Positions 6,672 to 32,901 are shown, numbered from the stretch's first letter. The stretch is 64,000 bases of DNA from Candidatus Omnitrophota bacterium (GCA_015232565.1 JADFZK010000001.1:13160-77159), one strand, 5' to 3'. The notes: generated from the letters alone by a model not told the origin. Program-made: numbers and translations.

Positions 6672-6686
6672 AGCGTTAGAGACACT
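6655..6686. repeat. 32-nt element ctcttcaaAtgtAaagaagcgttagagacact (copy 2 of 2)
   Basis: Matches 2784-2815 at 30 of 32 positions. Its 5' half forms the 3' arm of the 6577-6671 hairpin. Confidence 0.5.
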
Positions 6687-6848
6687 ACACTAGTACCATC
6701 GATATCAATGCTATAATTGTGCAGCGATCAATCTTTTCAGTGGCGAAACTGGCAATAATGAATATAATGTGCTATATTTTCGTCATGTTCACATTCTTGG
6801 ACATTGGTGTCTGTTTAAATACGTAATAATCTAATAAGGAGTTGGGCG

Positions 6849-9800
6849 ATGAATGTTAATCATTATAAGGGAACTGTTGTTTACCGTTCTATCTGCAGTT
6901 TGCTGATTCTTAGTTTTATTTTCTCCGCGGTTGTCCCGCCGCGGAGTGGGTGGGCCCAGACGGTTCTTAATTTGCCGGCGCCGGGCACCATGGTTATGGC
7001 CAGCCCGGCTTTTATGCCAGTGCTGATCAAGGGGCTCAAGGTTCATCCGGAAAATCCTTTACTGTTCGATTTTATTCTGGATACCGGTTCGACTAAGCTG
7101 GCAACCAATGAAAAGCCCGGCCTGGATGTGAATGGCCCTGAATTCAAGGCCGAGACCCAAAAGCTCATTAAATATTTTCTGGCTTCGCTCACTATTAAGG
7201 AAGACGACCTGTGGGTTAATCTTTCGCCTTTTGAGCGTGACCGCATGATCGCCGCAGACCTGGGCCAGACCGAACTGGGCCGCGATATGCTGGCGCAGGA
7301 TTATATGCTCAAGCAATTAACCGCGTCCATGATCTATCCCGAGAAAGAGCTGGGCCAGGCTTTCTGGGCCAAAGTTTATGCCCAGGCCCAGGAACAGTTT
7401 GGCACCACCGACGTGCCAGTGGACACTTTTAACAAAGTCTGGATCGTAGCCGATAAAGCCCAGGTAATGGAGCACAATAACGCAGCCTATGTAGTGGGTT
7501 CCCATTTAAAAGTAATGCTGGAAACAGATTATTTAGCGACGTCGACCAGTGCAATGCCAACCCGGGGACATGATGCCCCGCCAGCGGATACCAATGAGCG
7601 GGGCTTCGTGTCCCCCCGCCGGTTGCCAACCTCTCAACCAACGAATGTGAAAGCAACCCAGGTCTCAACCCCAACGCCAAACCCCACAAAAGTTCCAAAC
7701 GACATAAACGACACAAACAATACAAATGCGACAACCCCCGAAAACAACATCGCCAAAAACATCTTACGCGAGATCGTGCTCCCGATGATCGAGAAAGAAG
7801 TGAATGAAGGCCAGAATTTTGCCCCGTTGCGCCAGATGTTCTTCTCGATGATCATGGCTTCGTGGTACAAGCAGGCTTTAAAAGGCGCGCTTTTGAACCA
7901 GGTGTATACCAACAAAGCCAAAACTGGCGGGGTGCAGGTTGACGATCAGTCGGCCAAAGAAAAGATCTACGAACAATATCTTCAGGCGTATAAGAAAGGT
8001 GTATTTAACTACATTAAAGAAGATGCCGGGCTGGCGCTTAACCCCGGCGCGGATCCCGAGGCCCAACAGTCAATTCCCCGAAAGTATTTCTCCGGCGGGC
8101 TAATAGTAATGAAGAATTTTGCGGGCAAAGGTCCCACCATTGTGCCGTTTGACGGCGCCGCCGTCGTTAGGGACTTTAGTGCGGCTGTCAATGTGCGGGC
8201 CAGGATGGATCAGTCTCAGAGCATAGACCGTGAAACTTTGGAAAGTGTTCAGATCAGCTTAAATGAATTGATGGGAAAACCTGTTACTCGTGACGTATTG
8301 CAAAATGAACTTACGTCAAAAGCCCGTCTTTCTGGAGTGTCTGTGGATGATGGCATTATAAAAGGCGTAAAAGCAGGCACAATAGTAGTTCGCGAGTCGG
8401 GCATTGAGTATGGTTTTACGCAGGATGAATTGAACAAGCTTGCCGGAAACCCGAACCAGATGACTTTCACGGTTATGTTGTTGTCAAAAGGGAAGCTGGC
8501 GTCATTTTTGGTTGTTATACCCAGAGGCACGGCGGTGGATATTGCCACAATAGCTTTGGATGAAGCCTTCAAGAAGTATGATAATGCAAGAATGTCGCTG
8601 GAGCAAATACAGAGCGGTGGCCGTGGATATACTGAGGAGCAGCAAAAGCCGGGCAGGAAAAAAGATCAGGATCTTCAAGATGAGAGGGATAAGATGGCTG
8701 AGGGTTTAGCAGAAATGATTCCTAGAGTTAAAGTTGTTTTATCTTTGGGAGGCTCAGTTGCTTGGAACATTAGGGATATCGTCGGCGAAAAGGTAAAGCC
8801 TTATCTGTCATGCTTTGTAACGTTCACCCGGAAAGATGGGCGGGTTTATGACATTACGGTTAATGGGGAAAAAGTAGTTGTTCCAATTTCGAGGCACTTG
8901 CATCCATATTGGGGAAATTTAGTTGCCATGCATCCTGATTTACGCCCGCTGGAGCATGTAAAATTGAGCGTGGCGCTGGCTGGTTATGCTGTTACTGAGC
9001 ACGATATTAATGACATCACGACCGACGAGTCGCAGAAATCCTTAATAGATGCAGGTTACAATAAGCTGACGGAAGGCCAGTCGTTGAGGTTCGCTTTAAA
9101 ACCGGGGACAATGGGTATAATGCTGGATATTGAACGAAGTGGGAAGACCAGGCGGGAAAGAGTTTATTTGTCGGTTAATAACCATTACCAGTTAATTGTA
9201 GCGTCCGAGTTGATCGGAGGAGTGCGTCAGGTTACTTTGGATGCATATGGGTTTGTCGATTTGGATGCGCTTCTGGAATCGGATGTGAGTGTGGAAATCC
9301 AATGGAATAATGGCGAAATTGTTGTGCATAGTTCCCGGAGATCGGCAGATCCGCTCTTGGTTAAAAGAAGCGTGTTTTTCCCGGATAATAATTCTGGAGA
9401 ACAGGAAGTTATTGTTTCAAGCAGTAGTGGTAAATCTGAGCGGACAATTATTAACGATGATTTCCGGGAAGGCAAGGGTAATGAATACCAGGTGAACGGT
9501 GCAAAAGTGCTTCTCGTGTCTAGTGGTTCAAATCCGGATAAACGACATGTTGTAGTAAGCGCGTTCGCAGACGTTAAGCCGGGTTCAGGTCAGGAATTTA
9601 CTGTTCAACTTGTTGATCCTTCCATGCAAACCTGGGAGTCGCTGGCTCTCGAGATCCGCGCGCAATTTCTTGCCGCCCTCAAGAGCGATCTGGAGCGCGC
9701 GCTACCAGGTGATATTACGAACATTGGGTTGAGAGGACGTTATGATTACGAAGGCTATGGTATAGCGTTTCCAGCTATTGCTAAGCTTATCCAAGAAGGA

Positions 9801-18967: not shown

Positions 18968-19684
18968 TCAGAATACTGCCGGCGGGATCTGGTCCAGAGG
19001 AATGCCAGCGGGTGGTTCCTGGGGGCATTGACCCAGCTTGAAGCAACAGGCAAGCGCGATAGCCAGGGCTTGTTTCTGGGCGAACTGGATGTTCTGAAAG
19101 AGTTTCTCGGCCTGGGTGTCGGTGGTGGTGTCACGGCCGGAGAATATTTGCTGGTAGGTACGCGAGGTCAGCATATATTTAACGCTGGCCAGGGGGTCGA
19201 GCTTAACGGCGTCGCTCATCAGCATATACGAACGTTCATAATCATGGGTTTGATAAAGGGTGAGGCCGAGGTTAAATTTCGACCAGAACAGGGCGGGGTT
19301 TAAATAATAAGCTTTCTGAAAGTTTTCGGCGGCGGCAGCCGGGTTGCCTGAATGGTATTCACAGACACCGTTAAAGGTGTAAGCTTCGGGAATTTTGGGC
19401 ATTGCCGTAACCAGGTTCTGATAGTATGATCTGTATTCCTGCCATTCGGCGGCGGTGACTGCCCGGCGGGAAAACAACAGCTCCTGGAGCGCAGTAAAGC
19501 CGGGCATATTGAAATTCAGGCTGGTGATCTCGGCATTCTTTTTGGTCAGGGCGCGTTGATGCGCGATCCTGGCTAAAGGTGCGGAGGTGCTGTCTTTGGC
19601 AGTGTGATCCACGCACCACAAAAGTATTAAAGCCAGGGAAAAGAAGGCGGCGGTCAGCAGGGAGTATTTTTTTATTGGGCGCAT
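18968..19684 (-). CDS. Secreted TPR-like repeat protein
   Basis: Signal peptide MRPIKKYSLLTAAFFSLALILLWC, and helical repeats of the form AAENFQKAYYLNPALFWSKFNLGLTLYQTHDYERSY. It is the only minus-strand gene in the island. Confidence 0.7.
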   Translation of the reverse strand: MRPIKKYSLLTAAFFSLALILLWCVDHTAKDSTSAPLARIAHQRALTKKNAEITSLNFNMPGFTALQELLFSRRAVTAAEWQEYRSYYQNLVTAMPKIPEAYTFNGVCEYHSGNPAAAAENFQKAYYLNPALFWSKFNLGLTLYQTHDYERSYMLMSDAVKLDPLASVKYMLTSRTYQQIFSGRDTTTDTQAEKLFQNIQFAQKQALAIALACCFKLGQCPQEPPAGIPLDQIPPAVF

Positions 19685-19698
19685 GGGTGAATTATACT

Positions 19699-21120
19699 AT
19701 GTTTAAAATCAATAGGAACAGTTTCTTTACCGGCTTTTCTCCGGTCTGGGCGGCCATTTTGCTTAGTGCGCTCTATTGGCTGTACCTTATGCCCATCACC
19801 TTTCCCTTAATGGTCAATGATTCTTTGGGGTATCGGGATTTGGGCCAGCGGATAATGTCGCATGGCGTGTTCTCTTATTTGAATGGCGGAGTGAATCGGG
19901 AACCGCTTTATCCTTGTTTCCTGGCGCTGGCTATGTGGCTGGGGAAGCTGGTTCGCATGGATTATCAGCTCGTGCAGTATGTTATGCAATTTACCCTGCT
20001 TTTGGCGACCCAGTTCATTATGGTGGAAGTTCTGCGGTGGTTAAAGATCAATAAATGGATCATTGCCGGCACGGTGCTTTATTTTGGTTTCTCCCCGGCG
20101 GTAATTGGCGCCGCGGCCAGCGGATGGTCGGAGGTGCTTACCTTTCCCCTGGGTATCGGGGTCATTTTTATATTGTGCCAGTTTTGGGAAGCTCTGGCGC
20201 CGGACGGGAAGCACAGATTCAAGCTTGCGGTTACCGCGGCGGCGCTTTGCTTTATTATGTGCCTGGTGAAAAGTGTATTTGAATATGTAGCGATCTTGCT
20301 GGTGGTCCTGTTGTTCGTCCTGGCTTTTCTGGCTTTGGACCGCAAGAGATATCTGGCGCCATTGATCGTTTTCACGCTGGTCCTTTTTGGCGGGATACTT
20401 TCTTATAAAACGGCCAGTTATTTTGCTAATGGAGAGTTTACACTGAGTCAGCAGAGTGCGTTTGGCAAGTACGCGTTCTATGCCAGCACGGTTAGCAAAA
20501 CGCGACCGTTCACCATGAAAGATGTTAAATCGGGTTTACTGAATGCTACCGGTGGTTCGCTGTGCGACCGCTGGGATCCGGAGGGTTGCGCCAGATGGAA
20601 ATTGACCGTGGTCGACGGGATAGCTTTAGAAAAGCAGAAAGAATTGGCCGGCCGTAAGGATAAAGAAAGCGTGCTGGGCGGATTGATCGTCCAGAACCTG
20701 ACCGCGCATCCCTTCCGGTTTGCGGCGTTATATGGCACTGAACTGATCGGGATGTTCTTTTGGGAGTCGTCCCGCGAGGGTTTTGTGGTGTTCCCGGCAT
20801 TGGTGGTTCGCATTTTGAAGAATCCTTTCTGGGAGGTGTGGATCATTTATATCGTCGGGATCCTGACCTTGAGCGCGGTTGCCCTGGGGGCGGGTTATTG
20901 TTGGCGTCGTTTCTCAAAAGTGAGCTTGCTTCAGGACCGGGCCTTTATATTTCTGGTATTTTCCGGGCTGGTCGTGTTTTCTTTTCTGGGGGGTACGGCC
21001 TTGATATTCTTGCTTAAAAGATATGTGTATCCGTTCGTTCCCGTGTATCTGGTGATCATCGGGTGGGCCATTCAGCAGGTTTTCCTACAAAAGGCGGGAT
21101 ATGGATCTGAAACCAAATAA
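19699..21120 (+). CDS. GT-C family membrane glycosyltransferase (PMT_2/ArnT-like)
   Basis: Start taken at the internal Met MFKINRN.... The longer ORF-track start would overlap the TPR gene. It has about 11 transmembrane helices and an N-terminal loop NDSLGYRDLGQRI...NREPLYP. TATACT lies directly upstream of the ATG. Confidence 0.8.
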   Translation: MFKINRNSFFTGFSPVWAAILLSALYWLYLMPITFPLMVNDSLGYRDLGQRIMSHGVFSYLNGGVNREPLYPCFLALAMWLGKLVRMDYQLVQYVMQFTLLLATQFIMVEVLRWLKINKWIIAGTVLYFGFSPAVIGAAASGWSEVLTFPLGIGVIFILCQFWEALAPDGKHRFKLAVTAAALCFIMCLVKSVFEYVAILLVVLLFVLAFLALDRKRYLAPLIVFTLVLFGGILSYKTASYFANGEFTLSQQSAFGKYAFYASTVSKTRPFTMKDVKSGLLNATGGSLCDRWDPEGCARWKLTVVDGIALEKQKELAGRKDKESVLGGLIVQNLTAHPFRFAALYGTELIGMFFWESSREGFVVFPALVVRILKNPFWEVWIIYIVGILTLSAVALGAGYCWRRFSKVSLLQDRAFIFLVFSGLVVFSFLGGTALIFLLKRYVYPFVPVYLVIIGWAIQQVFLQKAGYGSETK

Positions 21121-22093
21121 AGCGCCGTTGATCTCGGTGGTGTTTTCTTTTCGTAACGAGGCTTTGGGCATTGCCGAACTGGTTAAACGCTGCCGCAAGG
21201 TAATGGCGGAGTTGCGTTCCCGGGGCAGGATCAGTAATCATGAACTGATCTTTGTTAATGACGCTTCCACGGACAATTCGGTTTTTATTCTGATGGAGCT
21301 GGCCGCGGAATTGCATGATATACGGATCCTGAACATGTCCCGTAATTTCGGGGTGGCTCCGTGTGTAATGGCCGGGCTGGCTTATGCCCGGGGCGAGGTC
21401 GTGGTGTATATGGACGCCGACCTGCAGGATCCGCCGGAGATCATTCCCGAGATGCTGGCGGCCTGGCAGGCGGGTGGTGTGGATGTGGTACATACCGTGC
21501 GGCGCTCGCGGCAGGGTGAGCCGGCCTTGAAGTTATGGGTGACGGGGATAGGTTATGCGATATTGAATCGTTATTGCGCGGTCAAGATCCCGAAGGAAGC
21601 CGGGGATTTCAAACTGCTTTCGCGCCGGGTGGTGGATCATTTGTTGACGCTTAAAGAGCAGAATCCTTTTATGCGCGGGCTGGTGTCCTGGGTGGGGTTC
21701 CGGCAGGTCTTTATTTCGTACGACCGCGCGGCCCGTTTTAGCGGCGCCAGCAAATTCTTCGTGCTGAGCCGTAAAGTTATCAGCAACTTTTTTAATTCGG
21801 CTATTGTGAACTTCTCGGCGGTACCCTTGCAGATCGCTTCTTACCTGGGGCTCACGGCGATCTTTGTTGACCTTTTCTTTATCGGGCATGTCTTGATCGA
21901 AAAATTAGCGGGACGTGCTATTCCCGGCTGGACGGCCATTATGACCATAGTGTTATTCATCGGCGGGATACAGCTTTTCTGTGTGGGCATGATCGGGCTG
22001 TATTTGAATGCCGTGCATGAACAGTCCAAGATGCGGCCGCGGTATATTGTTGAGTCAACGTATGGCTTTCCCGGGGAGAATGGCGGTGCGTAA
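21101..22093 (+). CDS. GT2 polyprenyl-phosphate sugar synthase (ArnC/DPM1/GtrB-like)
   Basis: Motifs ISVVFSFRNE, VNDASTDNS and DADLQDPPEIIPEML, followed by two C-terminal transmembrane helices as in ArnC and GtrB. Confidence 0.85.
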   Translation: MDLKPNKAPLISVVFSFRNEALGIAELVKRCRKVMAELRSRGRISNHELIFVNDASTDNSVFILMELAAELHDIRILNMSRNFGVAPCVMAGLAYARGEVVVYMDADLQDPPEIIPEMLAAWQAGGVDVVHTVRRSRQGEPALKLWVTGIGYAILNRYCAVKIPKEAGDFKLLSRRVVDHLLTLKEQNPFMRGLVSWVGFRQVFISYDRAARFSGASKFFVLSRKVISNFFNSAIVNFSAVPLQIASYLGLTAIFVDLFFIGHVLIEKLAGRAIPGWTAIMTIVLFIGGIQLFCVGMIGLYLNAVHEQSKMRPRYIVESTYGFPGENGGA

Positions 22094-23114
22094 CCGGTAT
22101 TTATTATTGAAGGCCAAGCTTTTGGCCCATGCCATCTGGACCGGCAAGCTCTCCTTGCGCAAGGTCATTAATGTCCTGGTTTGCAGTGCGGCGTTCACTC
22201 TGCGTCGGACGCGCTCCGGTGCGGCGCCTTTTATCCTGAGCCTGGAGGTCGGCAATGAGTGCAATGCCAATTGCCTTTTTTGCCGGGACGCCAAAGGCCG
22301 GATCTATGATACCGATCCTAAAGCTTTGCCCCTGGGCGGTATAAGTAAGGGCGTGATGCCCTTTGAAATGGCGGCCGATCTTATCCGGCAATGCTCAAAA
22401 GATTCTTTAATAGCGGTCTTATATACCAACGGCGAGCCCTTGCTTTACAAGGATCTGCCGCGGCTTATCCAGGCTTGTTCCCGGGTGAGATTGCTTTCCA
22501 TGATCGCGACCAACGGGCTTTTGCTGAACGAGAAGAACATTACGGAAATGCTCTCGGCCGGGATCGATTTTATTAAAGTGCAAATGAGCGGTTTTACCCA
22601 GGACGTTTATGCCGTGCAGGTACGCTTTGGCAATGTGGAGCGGCTCAAAGATAATATCCGGCTGTTGGCCCGCAAGCGGGATGAAATGAAATGCCCCACG
22701 GTGTTGATGCTGGACTTTATTGCGTACAGTTACAATTCTCATCAATTGCCCGACGTGCGGGCTTTTTGCCGTGAGCTGGGAGTGTCGCTTAATATCCGTC
22801 CCGGGAATCCGCGCGGAGGCCTGGAGGGCCGGGAGCCGGAGCTTTCGGCGGAGGCTTTGCCTTTGCCGGGCGGCTGTGACTGGCCTTGGAAAGGCCTGCA
22901 GGTTAATTTTAATGGTGAGGTCTTAATGTGTTGCGACGGAGTGACCTTTAGCGGCAGCCAGCCCTATGCCGTGTTCCGTCCCGGTGATCCGGTGGCGGTT
23001 ATCTGGAACGGAGCAAAGGCGCGCCAGGCACGGGCAACGCTGGCCACTCAAGGCCGCGGAGCCATTCCCATCTGCGCCCAGTGTTACCGCAAAGACCTGG
23101 CCTTCAAATGGTAG
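22080..23114 (+). CDS. Radical SAM protein with a C-terminal SPASM/twitch-like cysteine cluster
   Basis: CNANCLFC (CxxxCxxC) near the N-terminus. C-terminal cysteines MCCDGVTFSG...CAQCYRK. GGGGAGA ribosome-binding site before the ATG at 22080. Confidence 0.8.
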   Translation: MAVRNRYLLLKAKLLAHAIWTGKLSLRKVINVLVCSAAFTLRRTRSGAAPFILSLEVGNECNANCLFCRDAKGRIYDTDPKALPLGGISKGVMPFEMAADLIRQCSKDSLIAVLYTNGEPLLYKDLPRLIQACSRVRLLSMIATNGLLLNEKNITEMLSAGIDFIKVQMSGFTQDVYAVQVRFGNVERLKDNIRLLARKRDEMKCPTVLMLDFIAYSYNSHQLPDVRAFCRELGVSLNIRPGNPRGGLEGREPELSAEALPLPGGCDWPWKGLQVNFNGEVLMCCDGVTFSGSQPYAVFRPGDPVAVIWNGAKARQARATLATQGRGAIPICAQCYRKDLAFKW

Positions 23115-23202
23115 TTCTCACTGAGCCTGTCGAAGTTTCTTTTGATCTTTTATTCCTCTTTAGATGGAAAATAGCGTTAGATCTACTACACAAGAGATCG
23201 CT

Positions 23203-24891
23203 ATGATCAAGAAATACGGGTTCCTTCTGGTGCTTCCTTTTATAGCCGCGCTGGTTACCCTGGCGGTTAAGTTCTCGCTGGGGCCGTATTGGTTGGGCCG
23301 TACTAGTGATCCGGCTTATTTCCATTTGGTGCAAAGCTTGTATTTGTTTAAAGGTGTGGCTCCGTTCCACATTGTGCATCCCGCCGCGCCATTGATGGCG
23401 CTGATCGTGCTGGTGGTCAAGCTTTTTAATCCCTGGGCACCGGTACCGGAACTTTTGGCCCAGGCCTTAAGCAACCCGGAGTTTTACTTAAACAGTGTTT
23501 ACTGGGTTCTTTTTACGGCCAGCTTTTTATCCTTTATTCTGGTGGGTGTGTATGCGTTTCGGCGTACTGCCAGCCGGACTTTTGCCTTGTTCTTTCAGGT
23601 GCCGGCCTTCTTGTACTTGGCTTTGCCGGGCCATGGCTGGTTCATCCTGGCCAGTGTTACGGCAGAAATGGGGTTGGTGCCGGCCATTAATTTGTTTTTT
23701 ATGTGTCTTATAAAAATTTATGCGAATCATAAAGCTGCAGCCAGTTTACGGAGCGCTTTGCTGTTTGCCCTGGCGTGCGCGTTCGGGCTGGCGCTGAAAA
23801 TTACGTTCCTGGCGGCGTTGATCGTGCCATTGTTCTTGCTTAAGGGCCGTAAAGTGCAATGCTTCTTTGTTGGGTCTGTCGCTGTTCTATTTGGGTTGTT
23901 CCTGTTCCCGGTATGGGGCCGTATGGAGTTGATAGTCTGGACGGTGGTCGGGCTGGTGACCTCTAGCGGGCCGTTGGGGTCGGGGACGCATAACGGTTTT
24001 ATTGCCTGGGACGGCATGTGGAATAACGCCGGGGTCCTGTTCCGGGATCAGTGGGCGGTTTGCGCGGTCTTTGTGGTCGGAGCTCTGTGGTCCGGGTGGA
24101 GATTGGCCCGGCGATCCGGAAGCCGGGAAGAGCGCATTATTTTGGTTCTGTGCCTGGCGGCGGGCGTGCATTTTCTGATGATAATAAAACATGGCACCTA
24201 TCGGTATTTTCAACTCGATCTGGCTTTGGCGGGAGCAGTGATGGCGTTTCTTACCCGGTCGCTGGCGGCCGCCGGATGGTGGCGGGTGCGCTGGTCGGCT
24301 ATTTTGCTGGTGGTTGTGGTGTTGCTGTCCGGCGTGCAGGGCGTGGGCCAGGCTTATGACCTTAACGGCTGGAGAAAGAAGAAGCTGGAATTTCTCGAGC
24401 GGATAAGAGCCAGGTATCCGCAGGATGTTATTTTGGGGTATTATCCTTCTTCCGGCCAGGGGAATGCCTTGTTTGTTGCCAATGATATTCGTAACGGCCG
24501 GGTGCTGGGAGATGAACTGAACCGGCTTTATCCCGGGCGGTTCTTTTTTGCCAGCTGGAACTATAGGGTAAGTGATTTCAAGGATGTGGTTTATTTGTCT
24601 GATATCCAGAAGTTGTCCGCGGGCGTTTATTTCCAGGGAGATTGTGCATTCCGTTTTGAGCAAGGCCCGTATCGGGTGACCCGGGTTGAGGAAGATGACG
24701 GCGAATGCCTTTTTCGCCTGGACAGTTCGCTGGAGCCTCGGGCGCTGGCCGAATGGTCGCGGGCCAAGACGGCCTGGAATCGGGACGATTTCTCCGGCGC
24801 CTGTCTGGCCGCGAAGAAAAGCCTGGCGTCCCGGTTTTATCCTCCGGCCCTGCCTCGGCAAATGATCCGCAGGGCGTGCGGCCAGAAATGA
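23203..24891 (+). CDS. Polytopic membrane protein, possibly a GT-C-like glycosyltransferase
   Basis: More than 12 predicted transmembrane helices and a soluble C-terminal domain of about 190 aa. The start may be at 23164 or 23203. Confidence 0.65.
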   Translation: MIKKYGFLLVLPFIAALVTLAVKFSLGPYWLGRTSDPAYFHLVQSLYLFKGVAPFHIVHPAAPLMALIVLVVKLFNPWAPVPELLAQALSNPEFYLNSVYWVLFTASFLSFILVGVYAFRRTASRTFALFFQVPAFLYLALPGHGWFILASVTAEMGLVPAINLFFMCLIKIYANHKAAASLRSALLFALACAFGLALKITFLAALIVPLFLLKGRKVQCFFVGSVAVLFGLFLFPVWGRMELIVWTVVGLVTSSGPLGSGTHNGFIAWDGMWNNAGVLFRDQWAVCAVFVVGALWSGWRLARRSGSREERIILVLCLAAGVHFLMIIKHGTYRYFQLDLALAGAVMAFLTRSLAAAGWWRVRWSAILLVVVVLLSGVQGVGQAYDLNGWRKKKLEFLERIRARYPQDVILGYYPSSGQGNALFVANDIRNGRVLGDELNRLYPGRFFFASWNYRVSDFKDVVYLSDIQKLSAGVYFQGDCAFRFEQGPYRVTRVEEDDGECLFRLDSSLEPRALAEWSRAKTAWNRDDFSGACLAAKKSLASRFYPPALPRQMIRRACGQK

Positions 24892-24902
24892 TTGATCAGC
24901 GC

Positions 24903-24932
24903 TTGCGGCATAAAGTATATTCTGTGATATAA
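24903..24932 (+). promoter_or_regulatory. Candidate promoter for metF (TTGCGG-N18-TATAAT)
   Basis: TATAAT at 24927-24932, with the ATG 10 nt downstream and no Shine-Dalgarno sequence. Confidence 0.35.
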
Positions 24933-24942
24933 TCGCGCCATT

Positions 24943-25824
24943 ATGAAAAAACTCACCGAAATATTCCAGGACCGGCCCAGAACCTTTTCATTCGAGGTCT
25001 TTCCGCCCAAGACTGACAAGGGCCGGGAGGCGCTGGAAGCCGCTTTGGTAGAGCTGGCGGGTTTGCCTTTTGATTTTATGTCGGTGACTTATGGCGCGGG
25101 CGGTTCCAGCCGGGATACTACGTCTTCCCTGGTGCGGGCGATACAGGATAAATTCAGTTTGCCGGCGGTACATCATTTCACTTGTGTCTTGCATACGCGG
25201 GCCCAGGTTAAGGCTATCCTGGATGACCTTAAGTCTTCGGGCGTCCGTAATTTGCTGGCCCTGCGCGGTGATCCGCCCCGGGATGAGCCGGACTGGGTAC
25301 CCGGGCCGGAGAACTTTAAATACAGCTCGGAACTGGTGGCGTTTATCCGTCAGCATTACGGGGATCATTTTGCGGTCGGAGTGGCCGGTTTTCCGGAAGG
25401 GCATTTGCTGGCGCCGGATAAAAGTTTCGATGCCGGGATCCTGAAAAAGAAGATAGCCGCCGGCGGAGATTTTGTGATGACCCAGTTATTTTTTGATAAT
25501 GCTCTTTATTTCGATTATGTCAAGCGTTTGCGCGCTCTGGGAGTGGAGGCACGGGTGATCCCGGGTGTTTTGCCCATTACCAATTATGAAGGCGCGGTAA
25601 ATTTTTGTAAAAGTTGCGGCGCGTCGGTGCCGGACGCAGTGCACCGGATATTTGCGCCGCTGGCCGGGGACAAGGATCAAACCCTGGCCGCCGGAACCAG
25701 TTATGCCATTAAGCAGTGCCGTGAGTTATTAGCGGGCGGGGCGCCGGGCATTCATTTTTACACTTTAAACAAGGTGGAGCCGGTGCGGACGATCATTCAG
25801 GAATTAATGCGGAGTCTTACATGA
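24943..25824 (+). CDS. metF: Methylenetetrahydrofolate reductase
   Basis: FSFEVFPPKT...MSVTYGAGGS and a length of 293 aa. Confidence 0.9.
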   Translation: MKKLTEIFQDRPRTFSFEVFPPKTDKGREALEAALVELAGLPFDFMSVTYGAGGSSRDTTSSLVRAIQDKFSLPAVHHFTCVLHTRAQVKAILDDLKSSGVRNLLALRGDPPRDEPDWVPGPENFKYSSELVAFIRQHYGDHFAVGVAGFPEGHLLAPDKSFDAGILKKKIAAGGDFVMTQLFFDNALYFDYVKRLRALGVEARVIPGVLPITNYEGAVNFCKSCGASVPDAVHRIFAPLAGDKDQTLAAGTSYAIKQCRELLAGGAPGIHFYTLNKVEPVRTIIQELMRSLT

Positions 25825-26810
25825 AGAGCCGGGCACAAAACATTTTAATTACCGGCGGGGCGGGGTATATAGGGTCGCATATGGTGCGGCTTTTACTCGA
25901 GCAAGGTTTTAAACCGGTAGTTTTCGATAACCTTTCCACCGGGCATAAGGAGTTTATCCCCAAGGGTGTCCCTTTGGTCAAGGGGGATTTGCGTGATCCA
26001 GCGGCGGTGCGGAGAGCTTTCCGAAGATATCCCGTCAGCGCGGTGGTGCATTTTGCCGCGGCTATTGTGGTGCCGGAGTCGGTAGCGGAGCCTTTGAACT
26101 ATTACGAGAACAATGTGAGCGCCACGGTTAATCTGCTGAAAGGTATGAAAGAGGCGGGAGTGCGGCGGATAGTGTTTTCGTCGAGCGCTTGTGTATATGG
26201 CAATCCGCTGAAAAGTCCGATATTAGAGAATGAGCCGCTTAAGATCGAGAATCCGTATGGCGCTACCAAGGTGATGGTCGAGCAGATCCTGGGCGATCTG
26301 GCCCGGGCGGGGTGCATTGATTTTATTGCTTTAAGGTATTTTAATGTGGCCGGAGCTCATTCCCAGGGCGGGATAGGTATCAAGATGGCCAAGCCAACGC
26401 ATCTTATCCCTAATGTAATGCGGGTGGCTTGCGGCCTGAAGAAGGAATTGGCGGTTTTCGGTGATGATTACCCCACCAAAGACGGCACTTGCGTCCGGGA
26501 TTATGTTCATGTGGTCGATTTGGTCGAAGCGCATCTTTTGGCATTGAGAGCTTTGGCTAAGGGTAAAGTTAAGAATGAAGTCATTAATCTGGGCAATGGC
26601 CGCGGTTTTTCGGTAAAAGAGGTTATTGAAGCGGCGGTTAAAGTTACCGGACGTCCGGTGCCGCATAAGGTCTTGCCGCGCCGTCCAGGCGATTCGGTTA
26701 ATGTGGTGGCGTCCTACGCCAAAGCCCGGCGCCTGCTGGGCTGGAAGCCACAGCGCGGGCTGGACACGATCCTGTCTTCTGCCTACCAGTGGGAATGTGC
26801 CGGCTCCTGA
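25821..26810 (+). CDS. galE: UDP-glucose 4-epimerase
   Basis: ILITGGAGYIGSH, YGATK and RYFNVAGAH. ATGA overlap with metF. Confidence 0.9.
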   Translation: MKSRAQNILITGGAGYIGSHMVRLLLEQGFKPVVFDNLSTGHKEFIPKGVPLVKGDLRDPAAVRRAFRRYPVSAVVHFAAAIVVPESVAEPLNYYENNVSATVNLLKGMKEAGVRRIVFSSSACVYGNPLKSPILENEPLKIENPYGATKVMVEQILGDLARAGCIDFIALRYFNVAGAHSQGGIGIKMAKPTHLIPNVMRVACGLKKELAVFGDDYPTKDGTCVRDYVHVVDLVEAHLLALRALAKGKVKNEVINLGNGRGFSVKEVIEAAVKVTGRPVPHKVLPRRPGDSVNVVASYAKARRLLGWKPQRGLDTILSSAYQWECAGS

Positions 26811-26819
26811 TATATTCGA

Positions 26820-26847
26820 TTGACAAATATTCTCCAATAAATATAAT
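26820..26847 (+). promoter_or_regulatory. Consensus sigma70 promoter TTGACA-N16-TATAAT
   Basis: TTGACA at 26820-26825 and TATAAT at 26842-26847, upstream of the wHTH regulator gene. Confidence 0.6.
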
Positions 26848-26848
26848 T

Positions 26849-26863
26849 GTTCATTAAATGAAC
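26849..26863. promoter_or_regulatory. 7-1-7 palindrome GTTCATTaAATGAAC at the predicted transcription start. Candidate operator.
   Basis: Read directly. It lies immediately 3' of the -10 hexamer. Confidence 0.4.
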
Positions 26864-26917
26864 GGTCGGCTATTTCCGGTATCGAACTCTATCTATTTGA
26901 ACGGGTTGAAATAAGCC

Positions 26918-27493
26918 ATGGACGAGCGAGAATTCGAATTGATCAATATCATCGGCGGTGAGCTGGGGGCCAATCAAAGGGACCTTTCCCGTCAGATGAA
27001 CCTGTCTTTAGGCATGACCAACATGCTTATCCGCCGCCTTATCACCAAAGGCTACCTGCGCATCAAACAGCTTAACAAGAAGAAGGTCGAGTATCTTTTA
27101 ACGCCGCGCGGTTTCTCGGAGAAAATGCGCAAGTCGGTGCGTTATACCATGAAGACCATTGGTTCAATAGGGCTGATTCGCAGAAGTATCTCCCGTTTAT
27201 TAAGCGAACTATATGCCGAAGGCACGCGCAAGTTTTATGTGCTTGGCAGTTCTGATCTTACGCTTCTGATCGAAATGGTTGTCCGGGAAGAGGTCTTTCA
27301 GGGCTCTGAGCTGGTTCATGTTACCGAGCCGCTACAGGCAAAGGGCGATGGCGTCCTTTTGGTGTGCCGCGAGCAGTCCGAACCGGTGGCGCTGGAAGGT
27401 GTGCGTGCGGTAAATGTGGTGGAAGAACTGGCTAAAGACGAGCTCTTCGCCGGGCACCTGAGCCCGGTGCCAGCGGGGGTCCTTAATGGCTGA
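26918..27493 (+). CDS. Winged-helix (MarR-like) transcriptional regulator with a C-terminal domain of unknown function
   Basis: The N-terminal roughly 70 aa, ELINIIGGELGANQRDLSRQMNLSLGMTNMLIRRLITKGYLRI, form a wHTH. Confidence 0.7.
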   Translation: MDEREFELINIIGGELGANQRDLSRQMNLSLGMTNMLIRRLITKGYLRIKQLNKKKVEYLLTPRGFSEKMRKSVRYTMKTIGSIGLIRRSISRLLSELYAEGTRKFYVLGSSDLTLLIEMVVREEVFQGSELVHVTEPLQAKGDGVLLVCREQSEPVALEGVRAVNVVEELAKDELFAGHLSPVPAGVLNG

Positions 27494-28493
27494 AGTTGTT
27501 GATCCGTCTTTTAATGAAGTTATCGCTCTTATCCGTGCGGCTCGTGCGCAGGCTTTTCAGACGGTCAATACGGCATTGATTGACCTTTATTGGCAGTTGG
27601 GTGAATATATCAGTCGAAAGGTGATTTCTTCGGCGTGGGGAGAAGGGGTTATTGATAATCTGGCGTGTTTTATCGCGGATGGTCACCCGGACCTTAAGGG
27701 ATTTACCCGGAGTAATTTATTTAGAATGAGGCAATTGTTTGAGGCTTACCGGGATGATGAGAAAGTCGCACCGCTGGTGCGACAATTGCCCTGGGCACAT
27801 AATTTACTTGTCTTAAGCAAGTGTAAATTATCGGAAGAAAGAGAATTCTATATTCGTTTGGCGGTTCGAGATCGTTTGCCAAAAAGAGAATTGGAGCGGC
27901 AAATTGATGGGTGTCTTTTTGAAAGAAAGGTGCTGGCTCCAGTAAAAGTGTCACCACTGGTGACACTTTTATATCCTGCTGTGCAAGAAGAGTTTAAGGA
28001 TTCTTATCTGGTCGGTTTTCTGGATTTGCCCGAGCAACATTCCGAGAAAGACCTGCAAAAGGGGTTGCTTAAGGATCTTAAGAAGGTTCTTATGGAGTTA
28101 GGCCGTGATTTTTGTTTTGTTGGCGAAGAATATCGTCTTCAGGTGGGGGGGCAGGATTTTTTTGTGGACTTGTTGTTTTTTCATCGGGGTTTGTCGTGCC
28201 TGGTAGCCTTTGAAATAAAGGTAACCGATTTTAAGCCGGATTATATGGGGCAACTTGATTTTTATTTGGAAGCATTGGACCGGGATGTGCGAAAGCCGCA
28301 TGAAAAGCCGAGTATTGGCGTTCTTTTGTGTAAGTCTAAAGACGCTGAGGTTGTGGAGTATGCTTTGAGCCGCACCTTGTCGCCGGCTCTTGTGGCTGAG
28401 TATAAAACACGCTTACCGGAGAAGGCCTTTCTTCAGCAAAAACTGCGTGAATTTTATGATCTGGAGGCAGATAAGAAGGAAGGCGCGCAATGA
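27486..28493 (+). CDS. YhcG/DUF1016 family PDDEXK nuclease
   Basis: N-terminal DUF1016 helical region (LIDLYWQLGEYISRKV...LFRMRQL...LPWAHNLLVLSK) and a C-terminal PD-(D/E)xK core (DFFVDLLFFH...AFEIK). Confidence 0.8.
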   Translation: MAEVVDPSFNEVIALIRAARAQAFQTVNTALIDLYWQLGEYISRKVISSAWGEGVIDNLACFIADGHPDLKGFTRSNLFRMRQLFEAYRDDEKVAPLVRQLPWAHNLLVLSKCKLSEEREFYIRLAVRDRLPKRELERQIDGCLFERKVLAPVKVSPLVTLLYPAVQEEFKDSYLVGFLDLPEQHSEKDLQKGLLKDLKKVLMELGRDFCFVGEEYRLQVGGQDFFVDLLFFHRGLSCLVAFEIKVTDFKPDYMGQLDFYLEALDRDVRKPHEKPSIGVLLCKSKDAEVVEYALSRTLSPALVAEYKTRLPEKAFLQQKLREFYDLEADKKEGAQ

Positions 28494-28573
28494 AACGCGA
28501 CATGTAAATGAAAGGTATATGTGTTACGGCCTATTCGGGTGGTAAAGGCCTGGAGGTTTTCGACCGGGATTAG

Positions 28574-28870
28574 TTTGTAGTTAAGGTGCCGCTGGGAGCG
28601 GAAGGCGTTGATCCGGTGTCCGGGATCAATGTTGCTGACGGGCATGGCGCAGTTCAGCAGACTACCCAGAAAACTACCCAGAAAACTACCCGGCATATAC
28701 TCGCTCTTATGAGGAAGGATCCGCATATTACCCGACAGGAATTGGCGAAAGTTCTGGCCTTGACCGATGAAGGTATCAAGTATAACTTGCGGAATATGCA
28801 AAGGGACGGGATCTTAAAGCGCGTGGGCGCCGACAAAGGCGGGCACTGGGAAGTTCTGGTTAAGGAATAA
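28574..28870 (+). pseudogene. C-terminal remnant of a Schlafen/AlbA_2-HATPase_c_4-type regulator (TTQK repeat plus HTH)
   Basis: The reading frame is closed by TAG at 28571 and no N-terminal domain lies upstream. It encodes TTQKTTQKTT from a 12-nt tandem repeat at 28661-28693, followed by the typical C-terminal HTH ILALMRKDPHITRQELAKVLALTDEGIKYNLRNMQRDGILKRVGADKGGHWEVL. Confidence 0.45.
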
Positions 28871-28904
28871 GGGCGGGTTAAACGAACAGAAAGGATGGCC
28901 GGGT

Positions 28905-29648
28905 ATGAAGACCAAGATCTATAGTTTGGGCTGGGTGCCGGATATACCGGATACCAGGGATTTATACTATAGCGCTATTCGTGCCCGGGTTAAGCTGGCG
29001 CCGGCGGTGGACTTGCGGGCGGGTTGTTCGGTGGTGGAAGATCAGGGCTCGTTGGGTAGCTGTACGGCCCAGGCCCTGGCCGGGAACCTGGAATTCCTGG
29101 ATCTTTTGGCCGACGGGGCTTACGAAGATGTGAGCCGGCTGTTCATTTATTATAATGAACGGGTACTGCAGGGAGATACCACGGTGGACTCCGGCGCTTC
29201 GTTGCGTAACGGGATCAAGACCCTGGCCAAAGCCGGTGCGTGCGCGGAGAGCTTGTGGCCATATAAAATAGAGAAATTCGCTGATAAACCGGCGGCACGC
29301 TGTTATACTGAGGCCCAAAATCATCGGATCGTTTCTTATCACCGGATCACGACTGTGGAAGAAATGCTGGCCTGCCTGTCGGAAGGCTTTCCTTTTGTTT
29401 TTGGTTTTGCGGTCTATGAAAGCCTGCAAACGCCGCAGGTGGCGAAAACCGGCAAAGTGCCAATGCCCAAAAAGACCGAACGCATGCTGGGCGGGCACGC
29501 GGTGCTGGCAGTGGGTTATAACCAGAAAGATAAGCGCTTTCTGGTGCGTAACTCCTGGGGTGCAAAGTGGGGTATGAGCGGGTATTTCACCATGCCGTTC
29601 GCTTATCTGGAAACCCTGGCGGCGGATTTTTGGACGATACGGAAATAA
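28905..29648 (+). CDS. C1 family (papain-like) cysteine peptidase
   Basis: QGSLGSCTAQA provides the catalytic Cys. GGHAVLAVGYN provides the His. NSWGAKWGMSGYF supplies the Asn/Trp. Confidence 0.85.
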   Translation: MKTKIYSLGWVPDIPDTRDLYYSAIRARVKLAPAVDLRAGCSVVEDQGSLGSCTAQALAGNLEFLDLLADGAYEDVSRLFIYYNERVLQGDTTVDSGASLRNGIKTLAKAGACAESLWPYKIEKFADKPAARCYTEAQNHRIVSYHRITTVEEMLACLSEGFPFVFGFAVYESLQTPQVAKTGKVPMPKKTERMLGGHAVLAVGYNQKDKRFLVRNSWGAKWGMSGYFTMPFAYLETLAADFWTIRK

Positions 29649-29687
29649 GGAAAGAAATTCTTTGTAAAGGGATCTTTGAGGAGAGTC

Positions 29688-30671
29688 ATGGCAGATAAGA
29701 AGAAAGTACTTATTACGGGTGCTGGCGGGTTTATTGGCAGCCATTTGGTCGAACTTTGCGTTAGCCGGGGCATGAAGGTTAAAGCGTTTGTTCGTTATAA
29801 TTCCCGCAATCACTGGGGATGGCTGGAGCAAAGCCCCTGTTTAAAAGATATTGAAGTGGTGGCCGGAGATATTCGGGATTATGATTCTGTCTTTTATGCG
29901 ATGAAAGGTTGTGCTTCGGTCTTTCATCTGGCGGCTCTCATTGGCATCCCTTATTCGTATGTTTCTCCACAGGCTTATATTAAAACCAACGTTGACGGCA
30001 CTTACAATATTCTCCAGGCGGCAAAAGAGTTGGCGCTTAAGAATGTGGTAGTGACCTCGACTAGCGAGACCTACGGGACCGCGCAGTACGTTCCGATCGA
30101 TGAGAAGCATCCGGCGGTCGGGCAGTCGCCTTATTCGGCCAGCAAGATTGCGGCCGATCAGCTGGCTATCAGTTACTACCGCTCTTTCGGGTTACCGGTG
30201 CGGATCGTGCGTCCTTTTAATACGTACGGCCCAAGGCAATCGGCGCGGGCGGTGATACCGACGATCATTTCGCAGGTGCTTTCCGGCGCCCGGGAATTAA
30301 AATTGGGCAATACCGCGCCAACCAGGGATTTTACTTTTGTTAAAGATACGGCGCTGGGTTTTGTTGAAGTGTCTTTGGCCAAAAGCCTTGTAGGTGAGGC
30401 GGTAAATTTGGGAACCGGTACGGAGATTTCGGTTAATGATCTTGCGCTTAAGATCGCCGGTTTATTGGGTAAGAAGGTTAAGATAGCTTCTGAGGCCCAG
30501 CGCTTGCGCGGGGTCAAAACTGAAGTCGAACGCTTATGTTCTGATCATACCAAGGTTACGGCGCATACTGGCTGGGTACCGCGGTATGACCTTGATAAGG
30601 GCCTTAAAGAATCCATTCTTTGGATGCAGAAGAATCTGCAGTGTTATAAGGCTGATCTTTATAATGTATAG
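29688..30671 (+). CDS. NAD-dependent sugar-nucleotide epimerase/dehydratase (4,6-dehydratase-like; LegB/PseB-type candidate)
   Basis: VLITGAGGFIGSH; a catalytic triad Thr/Tyr-x3-Lys context (TSTSETYG...YSASK). GGAG ribosome-binding site before the ATG at 29688. Confidence 0.85.
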   Translation: MADKKKVLITGAGGFIGSHLVELCVSRGMKVKAFVRYNSRNHWGWLEQSPCLKDIEVVAGDIRDYDSVFYAMKGCASVFHLAALIGIPYSYVSPQAYIKTNVDGTYNILQAAKELALKNVVVTSTSETYGTAQYVPIDEKHPAVGQSPYSASKIAADQLAISYYRSFGLPVRIVRPFNTYGPRQSARAVIPTIISQVLSGARELKLGNTAPTRDFTFVKDTALGFVEVSLAKSLVGEAVNLGTGTEISVNDLALKIAGLLGKKVKIASEAQRLRGVKTEVERLCSDHTKVTAHTGWVPRYDLDKGLKESILWMQKNLQCYKADLYNV

Positions 30672-30677
30672 TTTGTT

Positions 30678-31856
30678 GTGGTTTATATGAAGCCAGGCGC
30701 GATCGACAGGTGTATTGCATTTATCAAGTCACAATATGAGGGCGAAGAGCCCGTTGCATTGCATGCTCCGCGTTTTCTGGGAAACGAGAAAAAGTATCTG
30801 TCCGATTGTATAGATTCGACTTTTGTTTCCAGTGTCGGGAAATATGTTGAGCGATTCGAAAAGCAGTGCGCTGATTATTGTGGTGCAAAATATGCGGTTG
30901 CTGTTGTTAATGGTACTGCGGCGCTGCATATGGCGCTTGTGCTGAAGGGGATCGGCCCTGGGGATGGGGTAATCACTCAGGCGCTCAGTTTTGTGGCTAC
31001 GGCAAACGCTATTCACTATACTGGCGCCAGTCCTGTTTTTGTTGATGTTGACCGTGATACCTTGAGCCTTTCTCCGGCCAAGCTGGAAGATTTTCTGAAG
31101 ACCGAATCCGTTCTTCGGGATGGAGCCAGGATTCATAAGGCCAGCGGGTTGCGTTTGCGGTCCTGTATTGTTATGCATACTTTTGGCCATCCAGGGCGTA
31201 TGCGGGAATTGCTCCGGGTTTGTGAACATTTTGGGTTGGTGCTTATTGAAGATGCGGCGGAAGGAATGGGGAGTTTTCTGGATGGCCGGCATCTAGGCAC
31301 ATTCGCTCCGATCGGGGCTTTAAGCTTTAATGGCAACAAGATTATTACGACCGGCGGCGGCGGGATGCTTCTTTTTGATGATGAGGCGCTGGCGCGTAAG
31401 GCCAGGCATTTAACGACTACCGCCAAAGTGCCGCATTCCTGGGAATATGATCATGATGCGGCAGGCTATAATTACCGGATGCCGAATTTGAACGCGGCTT
31501 TGGGCCTGGCGCAGATCGAACAGTTACCGGGTTTCCTGGCCAGTAAAAGAGCATTGGCCGCAGCGTATTCAAAGTTCTTTTATGATGAGGGTATTGCGTT
31601 CATTAGTGAGCCGGCTGGCGCCGTAGCGAATTATTGGCTGAATGCCATCGCCCTTGGCGATCGCCGGGAAAGAGATACTTTCCTGGAGAAGACTAATGCT
31701 GCGGGTGTGATGACGCGTCCGTTGTGGAAATTGCTGGATGGCCTGCCGCCGTATCAGCAGTGCCCCAGGGCCAATCTGGATAATGCCCGTTGGCTGGAAG
31801 ACCGGGTGGTGAATATTCCCAGTAGCGTAACGAGGTGGAGAGATGGAAAGACTTAA
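30678..31856 (+). CDS. DegT/DnrJ/EryC1/StrS family PLP-dependent sugar aminotransferase
   Basis: AVVNGTAALHMA and FNGNKIITTGGGGMLL, where the Lys binds PLP. Confidence 0.9.
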   Translation: MVYMKPGAIDRCIAFIKSQYEGEEPVALHAPRFLGNEKKYLSDCIDSTFVSSVGKYVERFEKQCADYCGAKYAVAVVNGTAALHMALVLKGIGPGDGVITQALSFVATANAIHYTGASPVFVDVDRDTLSLSPAKLEDFLKTESVLRDGARIHKASGLRLRSCIVMHTFGHPGRMRELLRVCEHFGLVLIEDAAEGMGSFLDGRHLGTFAPIGALSFNGNKIITTGGGGMLLFDDEALARKARHLTTTAKVPHSWEYDHDAAGYNYRMPNLNAALGLAQIEQLPGFLASKRALAAAYSKFFYDEGIAFISEPAGAVANYWLNAIALGDRRERDTFLEKTNAAGVMTRPLWKLLDGLPPYQQCPRANLDNARWLEDRVVNIPSSVTRWRDGKT

Positions 31857-32901
31857 GAAAATACTGATCCATCCTGATAGCACGATCAAGCAGGCGCTCA
31901 AGCAGATGGACGCTATGGGTGAGAAAACACTGATCACGGTCGACGCGAATAATTACATTCTGGGGACTACTACCGACGGTGATATCCGCCGCTGGGTCCT
32001 TAAGGGTAAAGGTATCAATGAAGGCCTGGCGAAGGTGATGAACTCTCAGCCCCTGACGCTGGTGGAGGGTTATAATAAAGAGACGGCCAAAAAGATCATG
32101 TTGCGCAAACAGATCGAGTGCCTGCCGGTCGTGGATAAGGTTGGCAGGGTTACCGGTTGTCTTTGGTGGATGGATCTTTTTGAGACCAAGGCGAAGATCA
32201 AGAATGACGTTAGACTGCCGGTGGTCATTATGGCTGGCGGGGAAGGTTCGCGGCTTCATCCTTTTACCAAGATCCTGCCCAAGCCGCTGATGCCGATCGG
32301 AGATAAACCCATTATTGAAGTAATTGTCGACCGGTTCTTTGAACACGGTTGCCAGGATTTTTATTTGTCCTTGAATTATAAATCAAATCTTATTAAGGCG
32401 TATTTCAGCGATTTTGAGCATTTATACAACATTAACTATATTTTGGAGAGCAAGCCGCTGGGGACAGCGGGCAGTCTGCACCTGTTGCGCGACAAGATCA
32501 AGACGACATTCTTTGTGAGTAATTGTGATATTCTTATTGAGGCGGACTACGCTGATATGTTGAAATTTCATCGTAGTAATAAGAACAAGATCACCATGGT
32601 GAGTTCCATGAAGAATTTCACCATTCCGTATGGCGTGTGTGAGATACATAACGGCGGGACGCTCAAGAGTATTCAGGAGAAGCCGGAACATGATTTTCTG
32701 GTGAACACCGGCATGTATATTCTGGAGCCGGGAGTCCTTAAGGATATTCCGGCGGACCGGTTTTATCACATTACGGACCTGATCAATGATTATTTGAAGA
32801 AGGGTGAGCAGGTAGGCGTTTACCCTGTTTCCGAGAAGGCCTGGCTGGATATTGGGCAATTCGAGGAGTTGCAGGAAACTTTGAAGAAATTTGAGGTATA
32901 G
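31843..32901 (+). CDS. Tandem-CBS-domain sugar-1-phosphate nucleotidyltransferase (PtmE-like)
   Basis: The N-terminal roughly 120 aa form a CBS pair. They are followed by VIMAGGEGSRLHPFTKILPKPLMPIGDKPII, a nucleotidyltransferase signature. Confidence 0.85.
   Translation: MERLKKILIHPDSTIKQALKQMDAMGEKTLITVDANNYILGTTTDGDIRRWVLKGKGINEGLAKVMNSQPLTLVEGYNKETAKKIMLRKQIECLPVVDKVGRVTGCLWWMDLFETKAKIKNDVRLPVVIMAGGEGSRLHPFTKILPKPLMPIGDKPIIEVIVDRFFEHGCQDFYLSLNYKSNLIKAYFSDFEHLYNINYILESKPLGTAGSLHLLRDKIKTTFFVSNCDILIEADYADMLKFHRSNKNKITMVSSMKNFTIPYGVCEIHNGGTLKSIQEKPEHDFLVNTGMYILEPGVLKDIPADRFYHITDLINDYLKKGEQVGVYPVSEKAWLDIGQFEELQETLKKFEV

Follow-up and report, generated by a model that had tools for sequence, protein, structure and literature searches.

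Between galE and a sugar dehydratase gene in a genome assigned to a Candidatus Omnitrophota bacterium lie four elements whose gene types look odd for glycan synthesis, and the question that they raise is whether they came there together, as a foreign island, or belong at least in part to the glycan genes around them. The locus occupies positions 26811-29648 of a 64,000-nucleotide stretch (GCA_015232565.1, JADFZK010000001.1:13160-77159), the whole of which is referred to below as the window. A first-pass annotation had listed a consensus promoter with an operator-like palindrome, a winged helix-turn-helix (wHTH) regulator overlapping a YhcG/DUF1016 nuclease, a promoterless piece of an AlbA_2/HATPase_c_4-type gene, and a C1 cysteine peptidase, and had taken all of them for a foreign insertion. 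The map of open reading frames (ORFs), Pfam scans and direct reading of the sequence find all four elements in place, as well as both flanking genes. Database entries from a "Candidatus Omnitrophica" metagenome-assembled genome match the regulator, the nuclease and the fragment at 99-100% identity; exact-sequence look-ups of regulator and peptidase returned nothing, and genomic context comes from homologues. Here we argue, with a probability of roughly three in four, that what lies here is the native beginning of a long operon for surface glycan in an Omnitrophota bacterium, broken by one small accessory insertion. Two of the four supposedly foreign elements would then be the native control module of the main glycan operon in a member of an uncultured phylum, and the annotation is corrected to that extent.

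The beginning of the locus carries the first part of the argument. The promoter is as close to the textbook consensus as had been claimed (Table 1), and is the sole perfect match among six promoter-like sites in 26500-30000. The operator-like palindrome GTTCATTAAATGAAC, of the form GTTCA-N5-TGAAC, likewise proved to be perfect and to follow the -10 hexamer directly, beginning one base past it and hence lying over the expected transcription start. Both features recur in other genomes: the strict pattern TTGACA-N15-18-TATAAT-(0-3 nt)-GTTCA-N5-TGAAC stands upstream of a regulator homologue in 58 of 86 loci, and of the 75 distinct regions upstream of the regulator in Omnitrophota, 71 have the palindrome with no more than one mismatch. 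No other columns there come near its half-sites in conservation, whereas the promoter spacer is free to vary in sequence. Among homologous loci the palindrome starts 0-3 nt past the -10 hexamer and the centres of its half-sites are 10 bp apart; from this spacing, together with the position over the expected start, we infer a dimeric autorepressor. Within the 64-kb window the palindrome has a single exact copy, and four sites match it with up to three mismatches; a wider regulon with extra operator copies in the window was considered, and none of these copies was found. In L001, one of the related loci that are numbered here with an L, promoter and operator are duplicated in tandem (7822-7869 and 7901-7948) upstream of the regulator, the copies being 79 nt apart and 79% identical.

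The regulator behind this promoter is full length in alignments with its homologues, of which there are 659, of 176-207 amino acids, named in every case either for Omnitrophota or with a generic MarR label. Scanning a single genome of each species gave 80 regulator loci, which head glycan genes and whose titles are nearly all Omnitrophota, the others being generic or of the kind "uncultured Planctomycetales". Where enough downstream sequence was available, the gene that follows the regulator is an SDR sugar enzyme in 28 loci and a C1 peptidase in nine; in the remaining ones, judged by N-terminal sequence, it mostly appears to be another sugar-pathway gene (nucleotidyltransferase, ABC exporter, SIS protein, aminotransferase or glycosyltransferase). 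Promoter, palindrome and regulator appear, on sequence grounds, to form one conserved module that heads glycan clusters throughout Omnitrophota; this phylum-wide position and the full length of the regulator speak against the claim that these three are foreign, and the promoter at 26820-26847 would be the native promoter of both the regulator and the glycan operon. No description of a GTTCA-N5-TGAAC operator or of the regulator family was found in the searchable literature, and the locus offers a concrete, phylum-wide candidate operator together with a regulator family, both apparently undescribed before.

The N-terminal 100 residues of the regulator are almost invariant across the family, and residues 2-98 cover the 105-position model TIGR04176 from one end to the other (MarR_EPS; E=1.6e-13), at a score below the curated cutoff of that model (50.6 vs 88 bits). 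In an AlphaFold2 model (pLDDT 83) the winged helix is followed by a helix ~38 residues long and then by a small C-terminal domain of alpha/beta type. In a Foldseek search of the PDB, residues 1-100 match MarR-family structures only, and the C-terminal alpha/beta domain (residues ~102-181) has no structural neighbour. That domain carries invariant G102, G110, D113, L117 and C150 and nearly invariant G145 and L148, and may be a ligand-sensing domain. The protein thus resembles MarR_EPS in the end-to-end alignment of its N-terminal half, in its MarR-like fold and in heading an exopolysaccharide or glycan locus, both in the window and in the species-level loci examined, but differs in having 191 residues instead of the ~105 of a single domain, with an extra conserved C-terminal alpha/beta domain of ~90 residues, in scoring under the cutoff, in being restricted to Omnitrophota in these searches, and in having a conserved GTTCA-N5-TGAAC operator of its own. 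A MarR-type autorepressor would bind a palindromic operator that overlaps its own promoter; here a conserved palindrome, the putative operator, lies over the expected transcription start. In the mechanism that we propose, a regulator dimer would bind the palindrome and repress its own promoter, and so the co-directional glycan genes, and repression would be lifted when the C-terminal domain senses a signal. These glycan genes form an array that starts with the SDR gene at 29676-30671 and reaches the window end; the order SDR-DegT-NTP_transferase recurs downstream of the regulator in L092.

The second part of the argument concerns the other end of the locus. The gene at 28905-29648 encodes a C1 cysteine peptidase, as had been annotated, with Peptidase_C1 (PF00112) above its gathering score. 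Residues 6-246 match PDB 3OIS (annotated "Cysteine protease") at E=8.7e-58, an entry that we take to be xylellain, which is consistent with the FEBS Lett 2013 citation in PMC10380794. Likeness extends over nearly the full length, and the catalytic residues are kept: Cys53, His198 and Asn216 are invariant in seven orthologues of 71-82% identity and align with 3OIS. The window protein shares with xylellain the short bacterial C1A type that has neither an I29 prodomain nor a signal peptide (PMC10380794); it differs in lacking the first ~30 residues of the 3OIS chain and in its setting, being encoded behind a glycan-operon regulator in a free-living candidate-phylum bacterium, whereas xylellain comes from the plant pathogen Xylella fastidiosa.

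This gene was claimed to be part of the insertion, and here the relatives decide otherwise. In those with a regulator at least 63% identical to that of the window, a C1 peptidase comes after the regulator, and in six of them (L003, L005, L008, L013, L016 and L022) it does so directly, the slot between the two genes being empty. In L003 the order is MTHFR-galE-regulator-(16 nt)-peptidase, and in L005 regulator and peptidase overlap by 23 nt. The peptidase orthologues in relatives are 71-84% identical, and composition is host-like, with a GC content at third codon positions (GC3) of 0.629, compared with 0.630 for the regulator, 0.602 for MTHFR and 0.591 for galE. The peptidase therefore appears native to this subclade, normally placed directly behind the regulator and outside the present insertion. 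Short C1A peptidases of xylellain type have been described as readily transferred horizontally (PMC10380794), so that this one may be an old acquisition fixed in the subclade. The pairing of a cytoplasmic enzyme of this type with a glycan regulator is unexplained, and the substrate of xylellain-type peptidases is unknown (PMC12090721).

With the regulator module and the peptidase both native, the real insertion would be ~1.4 kb long, and not the 2.8 kb between galE and the dehydratase that had been proposed, and it would lie within a native transcription unit. The comparison of syntenic loci that the first-pass annotation had called for did place edges, and these enclose only ~27479-28904. On the left, homology to L003 stops after regulator codon 187 (27478), where L003 has its stop codon; the window regulator runs instead through four new codons to a TGA that overlaps the ATG of YhcG (ATGGCTGA), so that its last four codons and stop (27479-27493) come from inserted DNA. 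On the right, conserved peptidase sequence returns at ~28926 (GWVPD), and because the N-terminal eight residues of the peptidase are variable in all species the junction can be placed within 28871-28928; the left junction falls within 27479-27485. Of the claim of a foreign insertion there remain the YhcG gene and the gene fragment behind it, the former accessory by its absence in the closest relatives and by GC3, the latter by its absence in all related loci, while the promoter, palindrome, regulator and peptidase are better regarded as native. Compared with the flanks, only YhcG deviates in composition (GC 0.450, GC3 0.438, neighbours' GC3 0.59-0.63); the regulator, the 94-codon fragment ORF and the peptidase are host-like.

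Table 1. Features of the locus and its flanks, in window coordinates
Feature	Position	Strand	Basis
galE, left flank	25821..26810	+	Pfam; order MTHFR-galE-regulator common to relatives
Sigma-70-type promoter, TTGACA-16 nt-TATAAT	26820..26847	+	12/12 consensus positions
Operator-like palindrome	26849..26863	.	perfect 7+1+7, 15 bp
Winged-helix regulator, 191 aa	26918..27493	+	HTH_24 E=2e-6
Accessory segment between regulator and peptidase, ~1.4 kb	27479..28904 (approx.)	+	empty-site comparison
Intact YhcG/DUF1016 PD-(D/E)xK nuclease gene, 335 aa	27486..28493	+	PF17761 + PF06250
Perfect palindrome 14+1+14, TAAAAGTGTCACCA C TGGTGACACTTTTA	27943..27971	.	within YhcG coding sequence, inter-domain linker
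Non-coding remnant upstream of fragment	28494..28585	+	frame closed, stop 28571-28573, more stops upstream
94-codon GTG ORF, TTQK-repeat linker + winged helix	28586..28870	+	HTH_24 E=3e-9
12-nt tandem repeat ACTACCCAGAAA x2.75, encoding TTQKTTQKTT	28661..28693	+	sequence reading
Xylellain-type short C1A cysteine peptidase, 247 aa	28905..29648	+	PF00112, 57.3 bits vs cutoff 20.7
SDR sugar dehydratase/epimerase, right flank	29676..30671	+	ORF map, Pfam

The main gene within the accessory segment encodes an intact YhcG/DUF1016 nuclease of two domains, DUF1016_N (E=5e-38; 130.7 bits vs cutoff 32.8) and YhcG_C (E=1e-54; 184.6 vs 32.5), in an uninterrupted ORF from whose translation the D...ExK motif (VDLLFF...AFEIK) can be read. 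The gene lacks a promoter of its own and overlaps the end of the regulator gene, stop included, by 8 nt, in agreement with the overlap that had been annotated. The defence-profile scan that had been suggested gave a full-length alignment of residues 7-331 with the PADLOC candidate PDC-S02 (E=1.9e-126), and defence is the default, unproven reading of its function, taken from PADLOC. The gene shares with the E. coli YhcG/DUF1016 nucleases and PDC-S02 the DUF1016_N + YhcG_C architecture and the form of a single-gene unit; it differs in being promoterless and, as its position suggests, translationally coupled to a regulator inside a glycan operon. It is missing from the closest relatives L001, L003 and L005, of which L001 and L005 are the nearest as judged by the identity of MTHFR and galE. 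Copies in L014, L033 and L088 are 78-81% identical to it, in genomes whose regulator is 57-67% and whose MTHFR is 63-68% identical, and proteins of Ignavibacteriae, Cyanobacteria, Verrucomicrobia, Acidobacteria, Planctomycetes and others reach 65-69%. All of this is consistent with YhcG being an accessory gene at this locus. We propose that ~1.4 kb was inserted between regulator and peptidase, replacing the regulator stop and adding four codons; this would have put the promoterless YhcG at translational-coupling distance, so that it would be expressed from the operon promoter, with the 3' piece of a HATPase_c_4-wHTH gene trailing behind as a dead end.

Related loci show that the window is one case among several. 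The slot between regulator and peptidase holds a 343-aa Fic plus an HTH_17 protein in L001, L002 and L007, a 244-aa Fic in L011, a HepT-like + MNT pair in L012 and a YhcG in L014. In L092 four ORFs with no family match follow the regulator, which ends in the last residues of the peptidase (...DFWTIRK), like a deletion scar. The L014 YhcG is flanked by an 83-nt direct repeat (7540-7622 and 8834-8916; 78% identical) that is made up of the regulator 3' end and the peptidase 5' start, and L016 is the matching empty site. Other Omnitrophota, too, have YhcG copies close to the regulator, 78-82% identical to that of the window and in four arrangements different from this one. The closest of them (80-82%) directly precede the regulator; in L088-L090 the gene occupies the regulator 5' leader, ~10-15 nt past the operator, and L021 is an empty site that matches closely. 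In L033 the order is regulator-ABC2-Fic-IS481 transposase-YhcG, and in a further contig it is galE-YhcG-regulator-Fic. Cargo of the slot matches the PADLOC entries PDC-S01, PDC-S02, SoFic/PDC-S04 and PDC-S09. The slot after the regulator repeatedly captures defence-type genes, and the resident YhcG is a promoterless defence candidate riding a conserved operon. The surroundings of the regulator would thus be a recurrent hot spot for Fic, HepT-like/MNT, YhcG and AAA_14/DUF4143 genes, the cargo of which is probably swapped by recombination, with the highly conserved sequences of regulator and peptidase as plausible anchors.

Defence and accessory genes gather at hot spots between core genes, and variable glycan loci are exchanged via their conserved flanks. 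The locus resembles these known cases in having one slot between two conserved genes, varied defence-candidate cargo and empty sites as well. It differs from them in that the slot is very small, an empty one being no more than a 16-nt gap or an overlap, and lies inside an operon directly behind its regulator, and in that the cargo consists of single promoterless ORFs with no integrase. A site of a few bases within an operon that gathers PDC-S01, S02, S04 and S09 genes offers a compact natural system for how genes move and gain expression.

Three observations on the related loci may be added. In L092 the regulator homologue (P0009, 4001-4543) ends in '...ALAQDFWTIRK', the C-terminus of the C1 peptidase, and the peptidase gene is missing, which looks like a deletion that fused the 3' ends of the two genes. 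In L014 a degenerate second YhcG N-terminus ('VLNDVRSLIEAARGVW') lies at 7623-7826, between the left repeat and YhcG, and suggests repeated insertion events. In L001, the closest relative, a gene for a YhaV-type toxin and a small upstream partner stand at 5164-5896, between GAPDH and MTHFR, and are another insertion of toxin-antitoxin type near the same locus.

Several points weigh against the reading of a native operon head with one accessory insertion. Co-transcription and autorepression are deduced from geometry alone. The insertion in the window has no flanking direct repeats, integrase, transposase or nearby tRNA gene: the search for direct repeats that had been proposed returned matches of 18-25 nt at chance level only, and none of the classical marks of a genomic island or mobile element (integrase or transposase, direct repeats, tRNA target) occurs within 26811-29648 or next to it. 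That YhcG acts in defence is unproven, since in the one test found a PDC-S02 representative did not protect E. coli from T4, T5 or T7 (bioRxiv 10.1101/2024.09.26.614923). The Omnitrophota clade of YhcG (at least 78% identity) was in every case found within 3.6 kb of the regulator, which could mean long residence or a functional tie. Lastly, a HATPase_c_4 origin of the fragment is deduced from a few short homologues, with no Pfam domain to go with it.

The first-pass annotation had called the fragment a truncated AlbA_2/HATPase_c_4 protein, the mark of a past insertion or deletion. The promoterless tail, the TTQK repeat and the closed upstream frame are as described; of AlbA_2 or the ATPase, Pfam detects no residues, finding in the fragment and in its read-through translation HTH families only, with neither AlbA_2 nor HATPase_c_4 (PF13749). 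A homology search with the 94-codon fragment gave 12 matches, all short. Among its homologues, which are numbered with a P, P0122, P0123, P0128 and P0131 share the TTQKTTQKTT linker and/or the wHTH tail, and several homologues join the end of a HATPase_c_4 domain (PF13749) to this linker and to a wHTH that ends in GGHWEVL; the TTQKTTQKTT peptide repeat is present in P0122-P0125 and P0128; and P0122 and P0131, respectively 50% and 48% identical to the fragment, carry PF13749, P0122 having the linker as well. The closed upstream frame (...GKGLEVFDRD*FVVKVPL...) is loosely like the ...AGFPEPVFEYEQTGLWVTFPF... end of HATPase_c_4-bearing homologues. The ORF is probably the 3' remnant of a HATPase_c_4-wHTH gene of AlbA_2 type: it shares with the PF13749 carriers among the AlbA_2/HATPase_c_4/wHTH (Schlafen-AlbA_2-type) proteins the TTQK-repeat linker and the HTH_24 tail, and differs from these proteins in being a tail only, AlbA_2 and HATPase_c_4 being undetectable. 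The type of the parent gene is uncertain, since the same tail occurs on a Fic-like C-terminus (P0124) and the fragment has a weak match to SoFic, which stands beside another weak C-terminal match to PADLOC PDC-S72. Descent from the Fic gene in the slot of L001 was also considered and rejected, as that protein ends in an HTH_17 domain that does not resemble the fragment. A past insertion or deletion is plausible, the fragment being found in none of the ~90 related loci and resembling the tails of HATPase_c_4 proteins.

The ORF could instead be a working small wHTH protein, for instance a regulator or antitoxin-like partner of YhcG. We regard this as unlikely, although its wHTH is intact and above the Pfam cutoff, its GC3 (0.589) resembles that of the host, there are homologues of 77-94 aa that stand alone, and NCBI annotates it as a gene (P0121). 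Against these stand a GTG start with neither a clear ribosome-binding site nor a promoter (28494-28585 contains no promoter-like site), an upstream frame that is closed and yet still like the end of a larger domain, an N-terminal stretch of 30 residues that is linker sequence, and absence from every other YhcG locus; the short homologues, for their part, are mostly on short contigs and are possibly fragments themselves.

YhcG itself might be an old resident and a functional partner of the regulator or the glycan operon, inherited vertically, shuffled locally and repeatedly lost, and not a recently gained passenger. In favour of this, all five Omnitrophota copies of at least 78% identity for which genomic context is available sit no more than 3.6 kb from the regulator, and they take up three different positions, either in the leader, behind the regulator or at a greater distance downstream. 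An overlap of 8 nt with the regulator gene suggests that YhcG has been integrated into the expression of the operon, and the peptidase is likewise highly similar between the window and L014 (81%). What makes long residence quite improbable is that the GC3 of YhcG lies 19 points under that of both neighbours, that the gene is absent in the closest relatives, and that the empty sites L016 and L021 closely match occupied ones. The identical slot, moreover, carries unrelated cargo (Fic, HepT/MNT), the YhcG family extends across many phyla at 65-69% identity, and an IS481 transposase adjoins YhcG in L033.

Another possibility is that YhcG is a selfish, homing-type cassette of a free-standing nuclease that cuts conserved sequence at or close to the regulator gene in genomes that lack YhcG and is copied in by repair. 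Homing would explain ORF-precise insertions at several points round one conserved gene, insertions which are nearly ORF-sized and, among the window, L014 and L088, have no common flanking sequence. It would also suit the sporadic distribution of YhcG among close relatives, its very high conservation across phyla, the failure of the PDC-S02 representative to protect against phage in one test, and the remnant of a second YhcG N-terminus and the duplicated junction in L014, which suggest repeated events. In L091 a 74%-identical YhcG (6001-7053) stands between a T2SSF gene (4-nt gap) and a pseudopilin-like gene (20-nt overlap), a context of a type II secretion or pilus operon, and a copy so wedged in would fit such a cassette too. 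Since non-nuclease cargo (Fic, HepT/MNT) uses the same slot, however, the hot spot needs no homing nuclease; PADLOC reports an enrichment of DUF1016 proteins in defence contexts, and no nuclease target was identified. We know of no case in which homing was shown for the DUF1016/YhcG family. We therefore hold the idea to be very unlikely for this gene, and give the same low weight to its general form, in which DUF1016/YhcG genes would be selfish homing cassettes, instead of or besides defence genes, that insert ORF-precisely into the junctions of conserved operons. If true, YhcG homing in Omnitrophota would target the surroundings of a phylum-wide glycan regulator.

The coding sequence of YhcG contains a perfect palindrome in the linker between its two domains (Table 1), which is partly conserved in five homologous genes. 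In L091 it is replaced by a different yet again perfect palindrome, which gives three compensatory pairs, all from that one sequence. As a hairpin, 83% of cells pair, vs 37-55% with the partner slid. The evidence for a conserved hairpin is suggestive only; it might have a part in YhcG mobility or expression.

Finally, it is extremely improbable that 26811-29648 in its entirety came to lie between galE and the sugar dehydratase as a single foreign island, be it of defence or of mobile type. The gene types look out of place, YhcG matches a defence-candidate family and a tendency to horizontal transfer is reported for short C1A peptidases (PMC10380794), but promoter, operator and regulator are kept at glycan cluster heads across the phylum, the regulator adjoins the peptidase in syntenic relatives that lack the middle genes, and regulator and peptidase have host GC3, from which YhcG alone deviates.

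No Rfam family was matched in 24000-32000. Upstream of MTHFR and galE, at 19579-24891, lie genes for a GT2 glycosyltransferase, a radical SAM protein and a 575-aa polytopic membrane protein, all of glycan type, and the glycan region therefore flanks the two housekeeping-looking genes, MTHFR and galE, on both sides.

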